Virus record (IMG/VR): IMGVR_UViG_2565956607_000001
Span: 1-18,748 of that record
Length of the DNA: 18,748 bases
Direction: 5' to 3' (one strand)
Origin: a virus
Lineage: Duplodnaviria > Heunggongvirae > Uroviricota > Caudoviricetes
Every line of letters starts with the position of its first letter. Position 1 is the first letter of the stretch. The position numbers were made by a program, and so were the translations under genes. Below are positions 13,654-17,946 of the stretch, piece after piece. Under the pieces are notes generated by a model. That model did no database searches, was not told the origin of the DNA, and saw only the letters and a program-made list of their open reading frames with translations.

Positions 13654-14961
13654 CTAAGCGGCCTGTTTCAGCGGAGATTGTTCAAAGGAAATGTCGGGGA
13701 ATACGTGGTTATGCAGCTCTCGCAAAGCCAGAGCCTGAACAGCAGGGTTGCTGCTTTCGAGATTTTTCAGTTGCGTCAGGTTGAGCTGAACGGTGTAAAT
13801 ATCGCCCCCTTCAATCGGCGGCATGTTTTCAAGACGGCGAACGTCATTGCGAGACATCCAGCCATTCTGCAGGGCGCTGGTATAGTAAGCAGCACGACCC
13901 GCACTATCGGCGCGCAGAAGCCCTTCAACGGAGAACTCAGCAAACAAGTCCTCATCACTGTTAAGAAGACAACGCGATATTTCCTGCTCAATATTGACCA
14001 GGAGAGGACGCAGGGTATGAGTCAGGAACAGCATGTTCATCCCTTCAAGACTCGAAGCCCAGCTGGATTGTTTTGTCGTATGGCCGACCATAAATGGCGG
14101 TACGCGAAACCAGCGACAAATTTCCTCAATACTGAATGAACGGCTTTCAAGGAGCTGAGCGGCCTCCGGGTTCATAGTGACATTCTGGTAAGTCAGTTCA
14201 TTTTCGAGAACCATCAGTTTCCCGGCGTTTTTAGAACCAATAAAAGACTGAAGGTTTTGACGCAATCTTTCTCGCTGTTCCTTATTAAGCGCCGTTTTTG
14301 AAGACAGGAAACCAGTACTTTGCAGGCCATTTTCGAAGATTTTTGCCGCGGCTTCATCAACCGACATAGCAGCGCCGAAAACGTCAACCCCGGCCATTGT
14401 CGGCATCATGCCGCACACGCCATCGAGACCAAACCCACGAATATGCATCATCCTGTCTACAGGAATGATCCGCGGAACGCCATTTTCCGTGTAGGTGTAC
14501 TGTAATTTTCCGCTATCGAGTCGCTTTACAACCATTTTCTGAGGAAGAAGCGGAACCATTGATACCAGCTTGTTACCAATGAAAAACTTTTCGACAAAAG
14601 CATTACCACGCAGACAAATGCTGGCCACAATCATCAGCATGAAACGGGAAGGTGTCATTTCCGGGTTAGGGCGCCTGCATAATATCTGGTATGCAAGATT
14701 ATTCTGGGCCAGTTTTCTAGATCCATCTGACTGTCTCTCGTAAATTTTTAGCGGAAGCGTGGATACCGACTCACTCAAGAGCCTCACGCACGCCCAGACG
14801 GTAGAAAGCCTGATAATTTTGTCAGCGGTGACAACTTTTCCGCTACTGCTGGTCCCGAACCACTCCTGCCAGAATTCACCGGTAGTCAGGCCTATGGGAA
14901 CACCAAGCCAGTTTAAAAGGGCGCTCTTAACGCGCCCTGGTTGCTGTTTATTCTTAGCCAT
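13654..14961 (-). CDS. Portal protein (435 aa)
   Basis: Size and position immediately after the large terminase gene; portal stop and TerL start abut at 14961. Confidence 0.8.
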   Translation of the reverse strand: MAKNKQQPGRVKSALLNWLGVPIGLTTGEFWQEWFGTSSSGKVVTADKIIRLSTVWACVRLLSESVSTLPLKIYERQSDGSRKLAQNNLAYQILCRRPNPEMTPSRFMLMIVASICLRGNAFVEKFFIGNKLVSMVPLLPQKMVVKRLDSGKLQYTYTENGVPRIIPVDRMMHIRGFGLDGVCGMMPTMAGVDVFGAAMSVDEAAAKIFENGLQSTGFLSSKTALNKEQRERLRQNLQSFIGSKNAGKLMVLENELTYQNVTMNPEAAQLLESRSFSIEEICRWFRVPPFMVGHTTKQSSWASSLEGMNMLFLTHTLRPLLVNIEQEISRCLLNSDEDLFAEFSVEGLLRADSAGRAAYYTSALQNGWMSRNDVRRLENMPPIEGGDIYTVQLNLTQLKNLESSNPAVQALALRELHNHVFPDISFEQSPLKQAA

Positions 14962-16703
14962 CAGATACCCACTATGATCGGATCGTCAAAAAAGCCCTCA
15001 ATATCACCATCATCAGGCTCGTAACCTTCCGCAGCACCAATTGCCATCGCTGACGCAACCACACCATCTATTCGACCAGTACTCTTTTTCTTGGCGAATA
15101 TGCGGTTTTCTTTTTGGTCGGCTTCGGTTACGGCGGAAGCAGCGTTCCATCGGAGGCAGGGGTTAGTTTTAATAATGATTACGCCATCATCCAGCATCTG
15201 TTCAAAGAGTTCGATGGAATGAGGCATCCACAGTCCTGAATCCTGCGCCTTGTAGTATCCCTGCCCGTGAGGAATAAGCGGTACTGATACAGAAGCGTTT
15301 TCCAGTTCTGGTTCAAGATATTTGATGCGGTACTGGTCGAAGGCGATCGCCTTGATATCGAACAACATGGAAAGATCAGCAATACGTTCAGCAACAAAAC
15401 CATATTTCACCGCCTTTCCTGGCGTAGTATGAATATGGCCTCCCCGTTCCCATGCGTCATAAGGTACGCGGTCTGTTTTCGCTCTATCCAGCAAAGTATC
15501 TTTTGGTGTCCAGAACTCCACCAGCAGCTTTCTTTTTTTAGGGAAAAAGAGCGCCAGAGACGTAAGGTCGCGAGTTCCTGAAAGGTCCAGGCCGCCATAA
15601 CATTCTTCTCCCTGCAGCTCCTGCAGGTCAAAGTCCTCTTCGCACCCCATCCACACATCGCTACTCATCCAGGGGTTATCGGCATCCACCCACTGACAGA
15701 AGTTTAACCGCCGAACAATGCTTTCCTTCGACGGCATCCCCCGAGCCTGAGTAACCTGCTCACGCAGGTAGCGATCGGTAAAAGTATGACCAAGAGAGGG
15801 GTTTGCTTTTTTCCAGCAGGACTCGTCCTTGAATGGGTCTTCTCCTTCGTCCAGGGAGCAAATGAAAGAAAAGAAACTGTCATCCTCAATCGAGCCTTCG
15901 GCAACTTTCCGCCCATACTCGTGATAGTCGTAGCAGACGCTGGTTTTGTCGTGGCCGCTGTTAGTGATCATAAAAATCAACGCCTGGCGACGACCTTTCG
16001 TCCCGGCGCGCATCATTTCCACAACCTGGTTGTTTTTGTGCTCGTGAATTTCGTCAATCAGAGCACAGTGTGGGCGTGGCCCTGACTGCCCATCATCCGA
16101 ACTGATAGGCCGGAAAAATGAGCCGGTCTGAAGAAACGCAAGGTTCCACTCTTTCCCGGCGCCGCCTGATTTATTTATTCGCTGTGCTAACGCAGGGGAC
16201 TGATCCACCATCGCGACAGCATCACGAAAAAGGATCATGGCCTGGTCTTTTTTCGTCGCCGCTGCGTAGACTTCTGCGCGAGGTTCTTTATCGGCAACCA
16301 AACAGTAAAGAGCAATGCCCGCTGCAAGTGGAGATTTGCCAGAACCTTTGCCTGACTCGACGTAAGCCATGCGGTACCGGCGATAGTCGTCTGAGTTTTT
16401 CCAGCCGAATATCGAACCTACAATAAAGCACTGCCACGGCAGCAGGTTAAAGGGTTTTCCCTCATGCTCACCGCCGTTGAGCTTCAGTATTTTTGCAAAA
16501 AAGTCGATGGCACGCTGCGCCGCTGCAACATCCCATACCAACCCGCGAGCATGGCAGGATTCCAAATCCCTGAGATGTCGTTTACAGGAGTTTCTAATAT
16601 CAGGACCGGCGATTTCTTTGCCGGAGTCTACATCCCGCGCATATTGCGTGGCGGGATCAACCGAAGAACTGGTTGAGCGGGTCTTCTTCTTTTTCTCCAC
16701 CAT
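14961..16703 (-). CDS. Terminase large subunit (580 aa)
   Basis: Walker A-like P-loop (VESGKGSGKSPLAAG) near the N-terminus; size; position between small terminase and portal; start overlaps the TerS end by 47 bp in another frame. Confidence 0.85.
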   Translation of the reverse strand: MVEKKKKTRSTSSSVDPATQYARDVDSGKEIAGPDIRNSCKRHLRDLESCHARGLVWDVAAAQRAIDFFAKILKLNGGEHEGKPFNLLPWQCFIVGSIFGWKNSDDYRRYRMAYVESGKGSGKSPLAAGIALYCLVADKEPRAEVYAAATKKDQAMILFRDAVAMVDQSPALAQRINKSGGAGKEWNLAFLQTGSFFRPISSDDGQSGPRPHCALIDEIHEHKNNQVVEMMRAGTKGRRQALIFMITNSGHDKTSVCYDYHEYGRKVAEGSIEDDSFFSFICSLDEGEDPFKDESCWKKANPSLGHTFTDRYLREQVTQARGMPSKESIVRRLNFCQWVDADNPWMSSDVWMGCEEDFDLQELQGEECYGGLDLSGTRDLTSLALFFPKKRKLLVEFWTPKDTLLDRAKTDRVPYDAWERGGHIHTTPGKAVKYGFVAERIADLSMLFDIKAIAFDQYRIKYLEPELENASVSVPLIPHGQGYYKAQDSGLWMPHSIELFEQMLDDGVIIIKTNPCLRWNAASAVTEADQKENRIFAKKKSTGRIDGVVASAMAIGAAEGYEPDDGDIEGFFDDPIIVGI

Positions 16704-17121
16704 CCACTTTCACCTTCGTTCTGGCGGCCGGAGTCAGACCGAATTCAACCAGGTAACTTTTGAAACGGCGATCAGCGTCGGCAAGCATGGCTACCGCCGG
16801 GTTAGCCTTAATCAAAAACCCGCCCTCTGTCTGCACGGTGTAAGTTCGCCCCTCGTCAGCAATAGTCAGGCGAAGCTGCAGAATGTCGGCGTAAATATCG
16901 CAGAGTCGTTCGAGCGCCAGCGTATCGGCAATGGTTAAAATGCCCATGCCATCCAGCAGCACGGTCAGCTTCCCCCACGCCACCTTTCCCCAGTCAGTGA
17001 GGTGCTCTGGAGGGCTTGGGATTTCTCGCGCTGGCGATGGTTCTTTGTCGTTAAGTTTGCGTTTGCCCGGGTTGCCGGTAACCACTTTGAGGTGGGTCGG
17101 TTTCGGGCGTCGTCCTGCCAT
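16657..17121 (-). CDS. Terminase small subunit, P27-type (154 aa)
   Basis: Basic N-terminus (MAGRRPKPTHLKVVTGNPGKRKL), typical size, directly upstream of the large terminase and downstream of the HNH gene. Confidence 0.75.
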   Translation of the reverse strand: MAGRRPKPTHLKVVTGNPGKRKLNDKEPSPAREIPSPPEHLTDWGKVAWGKLTVLLDGMGILTIADTLALERLCDIYADILQLRLTIADEGRTYTVQTEGGFLIKANPAVAMLADADRRFKSYLVEFGLTPAARTKVKVDGGEKEEDPLNQFFG

Positions 17122-17303
17122 CGGAACCTCCCGGAAAAAAACTTTTCATTTCGCGGTTGTGCACAAAAAGGACTGGCGGCGGTCATTTGGGTTCGAGGTT
17201 CTGAACTTTTGACCCGCCCCTCCCCCTCAGATGAGAATTGATATCATTTGATTCAAAATGATTTCATTTACAATCATTCCCCCGCAAAAAATGAGATTAA
17301 ATA
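17122..17303. promoter_or_regulatory. Candidate cos / terminase recognition region: GC-rich tract plus an array of ATCATTT-type repeats
   Basis: A 19-bp imperfect direct repeat (17231-17249 and 17291-17309, 16/19 identical); ATCATTT/AAATGAT in both orientations at about 17243, 17256, 17272 and 17303; GC-rich GACCCGCCCCTCCCCCTCAG at 17211-17230; location between the HNH and TerS genes, where HK97-like phages carry cos. Confidence 0.35.
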
Positions 17304-17645
17304 TCATTTAAACCAATGTGAGTTAGGATCCAGGGGCATTCCGCTCTCATCACAACCGATGACGGTGCCACGCTTCTCCATTCGCTGCTTCGTTGAGTCG
17401 TGGTGCTGCTTGCACAGCCCTTGCCAGTTCTTCCGGCTCCAGAAAAGCTTTTGCGCCTTCGCTATTTCCTGGCTGTCACCAGAGCGCAGAGCCTCTTTCA
17501 GTTTGTGCGGGATGATGTGGTCAACCACCGTTGCCGCTGTCACCCTGCCTTGCTCCTGGCACATGACGCACAAGGGGTGCGCACGTAGGAAGATAAGACG
17601 CTCTCGGTCCCACTTGCTGCCGTAGATACGGGGCTCTTTGTTCAC
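17304..17645 (-). CDS. HNH endonuclease, packaging-associated (113 aa)
   Basis: Two Cys pairs with conserved His (CVMCQ...VDHIIPH...CKQHH); position immediately upstream of TerS; start is GTG with AGGAG 7 nt upstream. Confidence 0.85.
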   Translation of the reverse strand: MNKEPRIYGSKWDRERLIFLRAHPLCVMCQEQGRVTAATVVDHIIPHKLKEALRSGDSQEIAKAQKLFWSRKNWQGLCKQHHDSTKQRMEKRGTVIGCDESGMPLDPNSHWFK

Positions 17646-17700
17646 GTAATCGCTCCTTGAGCATTATCACAGGCGCTCAGCGAGTGCCTGCTGTAATGCC

Positions 17701-17946
17701 TTAGCTCGCCTGTTCTGCGATGGTATCAAACAGCGCCAGCGCCTCGGTCGACTCCTGAACTGCTTTGATGGTCCGCGCCACCACTTCGGATTCAGTTGTC
17801 ACGCGACTGTACTGCTGGATGAACAGCTGATATTTGAGCTGGCTATCCTGGACGAACTCAATCGCCTTAGCAGCGGCCGCGGTGTCGTAGTTCAGGGTGG
17901 AAAGCAGATTCAGTCGAATCTGTTCTGCCGGTGTGATCTCTGCCAT
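17701..17946 (-). CDS. Hypothetical small acidic protein (81 aa)
   Basis: GAGGT Shine-Dalgarno about 6 nt before the ATG; GC and codon usage resemble the structural genes. No recognisable motif. Confidence 0.5.
   Translation of the reverse strand: MAEITPAEQIRLNLLSTLNYDTAAAAKAIEFVQDSQLKYQLFIQQYSRVTTESEVVARTIKAVQESTEALALFDTIAEQAS

Follow-up and report, generated by a model that had tools for sequence, protein, structure and literature searches.

Where is the chromosome of this Klebsiella prophage cut when it is packaged, and which DNA elements direct the cut? The stretch of DNA analyzed here (the window, 18,748 nucleotides) contains a noncoding gap of 182 bp (17122–17303) between a gene for an HNH endonuclease and the gene for the small terminase (TerS). 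A previous sequence-only reading had tentatively placed the cos site of an HK97-like phage in this gap, with its GC-rich tract and AT-rich repeats as the nick site and the binding elements for TerS or IHF. The analysis described below indicates that the gap is most probably the cos site of the prophage and that it belongs to the type known from phage HK97, in which cleavage is assisted by an HNH protein and leaves 3' overhangs; on sequence grounds, the virion ends can be predicted. In kind, this is an ordinary HK97-type cos site that is already understood. The assignment of functions to the elements within the gap needs revision.

Positions 16900–17700 of the window are 99.5% identical to Klebsiella phage ST13-OXA48phi12.2. 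The minus strand is the coding strand for every gene around the gap (hereafter, the gene strand), and the gene order on this strand is HNH, gap, TerS, large terminase (TerL), portal, ClpP-like protease, and HK97-fold capsid protein. The gap is bounded by the HNH stop codon (17304–17306) and the TerS ATG (17121–17119). Over 102 aa, the HNH protein and HK97 gp74 share 72% identity (E = 1e-59); the best PHROG match of the HNH protein is phrog_2323 (HNH endonuclease), and its match to the Pfam HNH family is weak. In the region 17643–17660, the HNH ORF starts from the GTG at 17645 behind an AAGGAG ribosome-binding site, and the alignment to gp74 starts at residue 1. In the near-identical GenBank record MK422452, this protein is annotated in a truncated form of 79 aa. 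TerL and the portal protein are 31 to 32% identical to HK97 gp2 and gp3, in agreement with the earlier description of the prophage as an HK97-like cos phage with a packaging HNH. The gap thus has the gene context of an HK97-type site, with a gp74-family HNH gene on one side and the TerS–TerL–portal–protease–HK97-fold capsid series on the other. TerL is 79% identical over 241 aa to TerL of Pantoea phage AH07. The latter aligns only from residue 24 of the window protein, which means that the true TerL start may be an internal codon; as annotated, the ORFs of TerS and TerL have 47 nt in common (16657–16703).

The HK97 cleavage site has been mapped experimentally, and the HK97 ends carry 10-nt 3' overhangs (PMC9410871). 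We compared the gap, read on the gene strand, with both ends of the HK97 record and found it to be collinear with the right-end/left-end junction over about −100 to −1. In this numbering, which we use throughout, +1 is base 1 of the HK97 record; with this choice, the numbering used in the papers (T16, C:G at 21, and A:T at 24–29) fits the GenBank record. The gap and HK97 have 17 exact bases in common, CCAAATGACCGCCGCCA; this shared run stops 2 nt short of the HK97 cut. In the alignment, with a caret marking the cut, the HK97 junction reads ...ATCAAATGAGAATGAATCGCATCAGGGCAGGGGGGGGGATCAAATCTTCAAAACCTTTGCCCCAAATGACCGCCGCCAAA ^ GTTTGAATTT... and the window junction reads ...ATCAAATGATATCAATTCTCATCTGAGGGGGAGGGGCGGGTCAAAAGTTCAGAACCTCGAACCCAAATGACCGCCGCCAGT ^ CCTTTTTGTG..., and window positions 17172 and 17171 correspond to the last and the first base of HK97, respectively.

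Pantoea phage AH07 provides a second reference, its ends having been mapped by applying PAUSE and PhageTerm to virion reads (PMC8567787). The AH07 record (MZ501270) begins at the base homologous to 17171, and its last bases are ...GCGACCTCCTGAC (i.e., ...CCTGAC). An uninterrupted metagenomic contig from IMG/VR (L069) matches the final 300 nt of AH07 exactly and continues with CGCCCGCCCC and then with the AH07 start. Compared with this contig, the AH07 record is exactly 10 nt short. Because 3' overhangs are removed by end repair (PMC5557969), this shortage places the nicks after ...TGAC and 10 nt later. For the window, the gene-strand (−) nick is predicted at 17172^17171, and the nick in the + strand is predicted at 17181^17182 (5'-GGCG^GTCA-3'). 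Hence, the proposal that cos lies in the HNH–TerS gap stands, being backed by the gp74-family HNH, the homology to the HK97 junction, and the AH07 virion ends, whereas the highlighted features, including the GC-rich tract, do not contain the nick site: by homology, the cut is at 17172–17181, 30 to 40 bp to the TerS side of the tract.

Genomes with 3' cos ends that are assembled from end-repaired reads can come out 10 nt short. Other records were considered as evidence on the ends. The start of Klebsiella phage P7641 (PQ133623; L001/L005) was rejected as a mapped end, the record having been cut at CDS borders. This “complete genome” opens with the HNH stop, closes with the TerS ATG, and is without the whole cos-containing intergenic region. 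Two IMG/VR contigs with ends near cos (L079 and L137) were also set aside, as they end at uninformative positions. The features of the locus are collected in Table 1.

Table 1. Features of the HNH–TerS region, with positions in the window and relative to the gene-strand cut, and mean nucleotide diversity among relatives
Feature	Window position	Position relative to cut	Strand	Diversity	Remarks
DUF2560 protein gene	17701-17946		-		
Packaging HNH endonuclease gene, gp74 family	17304..17645		-		113 aa, GTG start, AAGGAG ribosome-binding site
AT-rich array, ATCATTT/AAATGA units	17231..17310		.		
Distal ATGA-N9-TCAT palindrome, ATGATATTTAATCTCAT (gene strand)	17291..17307		.		Its TGA is the HNH stop codon; second copy of the direct repeat with 60-nt spacing
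Proximal ATGA-N9-TCAT palindrome, ATGATATCAATTCTCAT	17231..17247	-76..-60	.		
Upstream of G tract		-62..-56		0.65	
G tract, GGGGGAGGGGCGGG	17213..17226	-55..-42	-	0.20	The GC-rich tract of the sequence-only reading
Conserved TCAAAAGTTCA	17202..17212	-41..-31	-	0.13	HK97 has TCAAATCTTCA at the same place
Variable 13-nt spacer	17189..17201	-30..-18	-	0.44	Diversity above third-codon level; in many relatives, an inverted copy of the left-hand GTTCAG
Conserved flank of + strand nick, AAATGAC	17182..17188	-17..-11	-	0.16	
Predicted 10-nt 3' cohesive end, CGCCGCCAGT	17181..17172	-10..-1	-	0.22	Aligned counterpart in the HK97 record (final 10 nt): CGCCGCCAAA
Immediately past the cut		+1..+10		0.10	
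Candidate TerS-binding site, CACAACCGCGAAATGAAAAGTTTTTTT	17135..17161	+11..+37	-	0.016	GC core, then A/T tract; from conservation and HK97 analogy
TerS ribosome-binding site, GGGAGG	17127..17132		-		Read from the sequence
TerS gene, P27 family (PF05119, phrog_83)	16657..17121		-	0.05 / 0.025 / 0.32	Diversity at codon positions 1 / 2 / 3
TerL gene, HK97-like	14961..16703		-		31% identical to HK97 gp2, E = 4e-65

The diversity values in Table 1 are based on 160 IMG/VR loci with TerS or HNH at least 92% identical to the window proteins. The loci were anchored without gaps on the cos core by best-match search, and diversity was calculated over the 104 distinct sequences. In these relatives, almost no variation occurs in TGACCGCC, the sequence spanning the + strand nick, whereas the last six bases of the overhang vary. 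The segment from +11 to +37 is the most conserved noncoding DNA at the locus; its diversity (0.016) is below that at the second codon positions of TerS (0.025) and at the third positions (0.323).

In HK97, the minimal TerS site is at +15 to +29, between the cut and the TerS gene, and includes the C:G pair at 21 and an adjacent A-tract (PMC11331095). The conserved block in the window could likewise be the site bound by TerS. In Serratia phage OS31 (L171), the block keeps its distance to the cut and not to the ATG, despite an insertion of ~90 nt before the TerS ribosome-binding site, which indicates that the block belongs to cos and not to translation initiation, although its conservation might partly reflect a function in the mRNA leader. 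Phages phi467 and mEp235 (TerS 36–41% identical) and Kp4882-1 (32%) have GC-core plus A/T-tract blocks of their own in the same place, and they keep the G tract, its 31-nt spacing, and (G/T)AC^CGCCGCC. Based on conservation and on the analogy with HK97, we regard 17135–17161 as the best candidate for the TerS site. The predicted cut and this candidate TerS site both lie in the portion of the gap that the sequence-only reading did not highlight. The OS31 overhang, CTATCACCGT, departs from the CGCC consensus.

The analogy has to be made with care since TerS of the window is not a homologue of HK97 gp1 by sequence. Neither BLASTP nor profile comparison revealed sequence similarity between the two proteins, and their PHROGs differ (phrog_83 and phrog_5601). 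Searching the PDB with the single TerS sequence and with a profile yielded no terminase match. An AlphaFold (AF2) model of TerS had a mean pLDDT of 67, with values above 90 in much of the core. The top fold match of this model in the PDB was the HK97 TerS–DNA complex, 8POP; the match is weak and not significant (E = 0.38, TM 0.43–0.58), and we treat it as suggestive only. The N-terminal arm of TerS contains an arginine, R5, that is invariant across 38 homologues, and R4 is nearly so. In the HK97 protein, Lys4, Arg5, and Arg7 of the arm touch DNA (PMC11331095). The two arms, MAGRRPKP in the window and MADKRIRS in HK97, resemble each other despite the lack of detectable sequence homology between the proteins. 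The HK97 binding geometry is hence transferred here as an analogy backed by conservation and not as homology.

On the HNH side of the cut, the G tract and AGTTCA were found in all relatives examined. The distance from the G tract to the + strand nick is always 31 nt, in the window type as well as in HK97, phi467, mEp235, and Kp4882-1. As judged from these sequences, the GC-rich tract is a conserved cos element located 31 nt from the nick and not the nick itself. At 17182–17206 (−35 to −11), relatives combine the conserved GTTCAG with an inverted partner, CTGAA(C), that occurs in shifting registers in the otherwise variable spacer. The mean longest stem of this dyad in relatives is 4.3, compared with 3.3 ± 0.12 in shuffles; in the window itself, the dyad within −35 to −11 is just GTTC..GAAC, 4 bp.

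Farther upstream, the composition changes sharply, from 80% GC at 17211–17230 to 25% at 17231–17310, in a window with 52% GC overall. The repeats described in the sequence-only reading are real. Three of the six exact copies of ATCATTT in 18.7 kb, in both orientations, fall within the 67 bp from 17243 to 17309, and TCATTT (either strand) occurs five times in the array, compared with 0.14 times in shuffles of the array itself (~35-fold; none of 5000 shuffles reached five). The 19-bp imperfect direct repeat (17231–17249 and 17291–17309) matches at 16 of 19 positions, a score that no shuffle reached, and can be extended to 26 nt at 77% with a spacing of 60; its second copy overruns the gap by 6 nt and includes the HNH stop codon. 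On the gene strand, ATGA starts at −136, −106, −96, and −76 from the cut, i.e., in a phase of about 10 bp. The array of HK97 is comparable: its ATCA units start at −110, −100, −80, and −60, also in a phase of about 10 bp.

The array has as its core unit the palindrome ATGA-N9-TCAT, for which the two copies listed in Table 1 are the only exact occurrences in the whole window. In 57 of the 104 distinct relatives, an exact copy starts at −78 to −72, compared with a background of 0.025 per kb; in 18 of the 104 (about 17%), the palindrome is absent even when one mismatch is allowed. The array would thus be an accessory element, in contrast to the G tract and AGTTCA. The family logo, TTCAAATGA[T/G]A[T/A]C[G/A]ATT[C/A]TCAT, equals the 7-1-7 core of the Fur box, TGATAATnATTATCA, except for one arm position. 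Thirteen of 46 distinct instances match the Fur consensus at 15 or more of 19 positions, the composition-matched chance of at least 14 being 0.0016. The window copies match the 19-bp Fur box, GATAATGATAATCATTATC, at 12 to 13 of 19 positions and the core at 11 of 14. Several of the relatives with a palindrome at about −76 (L049, L063, L068, L084, and others) match the Fur consensus at 16 of 19 positions.

One tentative interpretation is that the array serves as a docking or bending module for HNH, TerL, or a host protein (e.g., a Fur-like dimer) and, in a cosQ-like manner, enhances cutting upon arrival of the motor from upstream. The fixed location of the palindrome at −76/−77 in more than half of the relatives, the 10-bp phase of the ATGA units, and the similarity of the logo to the Fur core are consistent with such a role, as is the presence of an array in HK97, which has the same type of HNH and not the same TerS. 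On the other hand, the module is missing from about 17% of relatives, the window copies reach only 11/14 of the Fur core, the HK97 match is weaker still, and AT-rich palindromes easily resemble Fur boxes. Scans of the gap for other functions gave little: the sole Rfam match (E = 0.49) was under the gathering score, the only promoter-like site was on the noncoding strand, and terminator-like sites occurred at chance level. A literature search on the function of the upstream HK97 cos region or on an IHF requirement returned nothing usable.

It is rather doubtful, although conceivable, that the array has no function of its own and represents recombination or duplication debris at the 3' end of the HNH gene. 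Relatives with a short gap have a single palindrome with the HNH stop codon inside (TGG TTC AAA TGA TAT...). In the window, the palindrome occurs twice at a spacing of 60 nt, and a G run comes after each copy (TGCGGGGGA and TGAGGGGGA); judging by sequence, these two palindrome plus G-run units look like a degenerate duplication. The content upstream of −60 is also very variable, as reflected in the diversity of 0.65. What speaks against debris is that both the motif and the location of the noncoding proximal copy are retained in the window and the Pantoea type and, more loosely, in HK97, which exceeds the expectation for drift.

The comparison with HK97 and AH07 bears on how the site is assembled. 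The cos site of HK97 and HK022 (10-nt 3' ends; gp1, gp2, and gp74) occupies the same position between HNH and TerS, and the homologous DNA from about −100 to −1 comprises an AT-rich ATCA/ATGA array, the G tract, TCAAA(A/T)(G/C)TTCA, and AAATGAC^CGCCGCCA. In addition to the spacing of the G tract, the distance from the cut to the TerS ATG (49–50 nt) is the same. Homology ends at the cut, with no sequence relationship in +1 to +50 or in TerS. Differences are also seen in the last three overhang bases (AGT versus AAA) and in the distance from HNH to the cut (132 nt in the window versus 319 nt in HK97). AH07, in turn, resembles the window in TerS (93% identical), TerL (79%), HNH (73%), and +1 to +50 (90%), and has two ATGA-N9-TCAT palindromes and a G tract upstream; it differs in its overhang, CGCCCGCCCC, which its GenBank record omits, and in the −30 to −11 spacer. 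The window thus has the HNH-side half of cos in common with HK97, and not the TerS-side half or TerS, whereas it shares the TerS-side half and TerS with AH07, the HNH-side halves having diverged. This pattern suggests that the two halves of cos are exchanged independently of each other and meet at, or right beside, the cut. The 80 closest HNH relatives in IMG/VR (at least 92% identical) all have the same TerS block and provide no test of module shuffling; the module comparison instead used phage records with HNH at 35 to 74% identity.

A more specific version of this idea, which we put forward as a speculative and rather unlikely proposal, is that the HNH-side half (palindromes, G tract, GTTCAG dyad, and TGAC^CGCC) is a portable cos subsite that recombines independently of TerS and its site, with the joint at the cut. 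This half would dock HNH and/or a host factor, and HNH, with CG^GT specificity, would nick the + strand, while TerL would nick the other strand 10 nt away. For HK97, it has been suggested that TerL and gp74 may each cut one of the two strands (PMC11331095). N.phiGamma, a packaging-linked HNH nickase, nicks CG^GT, and the specificities of other such nickases are closely similar (PMC3592412). The HNH genes of these Gram-positive cos phages (Xu and Gupta 2012) also adjoin cos and the terminase genes, and the specificity of N.phiGamma-type enzymes, CG^GT (AC^CG), fits the predicted + strand nick, GGCG^GTCA. By analogy, the HNH of the window is a candidate for making this nick, although N.phiGamma-type nickases fall into another HNH subgroup, which has zinc ribbons, and OS31 has AG^GT.

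A layout modeled on phage lambda, in which the nick would lie in or adjoin the GC tract at 17211–17230 and the ATCATTT repeats would be cosB-like sites for TerS and/or IHF, appears very unlikely. In its favor, the repeats are real, nonrandom, phased at ~10 bp, and partly conserved in position, and early mapping in HK97 located TerS recognition no more precisely than between −80 and +472 (PMC11331095). The lambda site (cosQ–cosN–cosB) is also similar in outline, with a nick site flanked by a TerS site on the terminase side and an auxiliary element upstream. However, the ends of HK97 and AH07 correspond to positions 30 to 40 bp away from the tract, and the minimal TerS site of HK97 is downstream of the cut, on the other side from the array. 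The upstream array is shared with HK97, whose TerS is unrelated, and the palindrome is absent in 18 of 104 relatives with TerS at least 93% identical. In OS31, the ~90-nt insertion between the TerS-site block and the ribosome-binding site has a similar array, with AATCATTT or GAAATGG-type motifs, across the cut on the TerS side. An array in HK97 together with an unrelated TerS, and one in OS31 on the other side of the cut, make a role of the repeats as a TerS site unlikely. Lambda, moreover, has 12-nt 5' ends (versus 10-nt 3' ends) and gpNu1 (versus a P27-family TerS), with R sites and the IHF site I1; the window has an HNH, its repeats are on the HNH side, and it is without triple R repeats downstream of the cut. 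The IHF consensus, WATCAANNNNTTR, does not occur in the gap within one mismatch. That packaging is of the headful (pac) type, or that the prophage is defective and the gap is not a working cos, is extremely unlikely, as nothing positive counted for this reading, TerL is of the HK97 type, the relative AH07 has fixed ends, and the cos core and TerS block show little or no change across dozens of independent prophage and virome contigs, pointing to ongoing selection.

If the gap functions as an HK97-type cos site, packaging could proceed as follows. The concatemer would be cut with a 10-nt stagger, leaving the 3' cohesive end CGCCGCCAGT, such that the right end of the virion chromosome would carry the HNH gene, and the TerS start would be 50 nt from the left end. 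On the HK97 model, a TerS ring would bind at 17135–17161 and position or stall TerL, which would arrive from the HNH side or assemble there. Aided by HNH, the TerL nuclease would then cleave at the conserved TGAC^CGCC core. The HNH-side elements, i.e., the G tract at its fixed 31 nt, TCAAAAGTTCA, and the phased ATGA-N9-TCAT array (with the palindromes being optional), would be auxiliary cos subsites that the incoming motor meets just before the cut and that modulate the reaction. We infer both the pairing of proteins with elements and that of nucleases with strands.

For a prophage family that is common in Klebsiella, Enterobacter-like, and Pantoea hosts, these results provide predictions of the cohesive ends at the level of single bases. 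They also provide a 27-bp candidate recognition site for a P27-family TerS, a family without a structure or a mapped site. Such information may be used for the correct linearization of phage genomes, for the design of cos-based packaging vectors, and for reading transduction data. Finally, comparing these phages separates the parts of an HK97-type cos site that accompany TerS from those that do not, and suggests a division of labor between HNH and TerL that can be tested.
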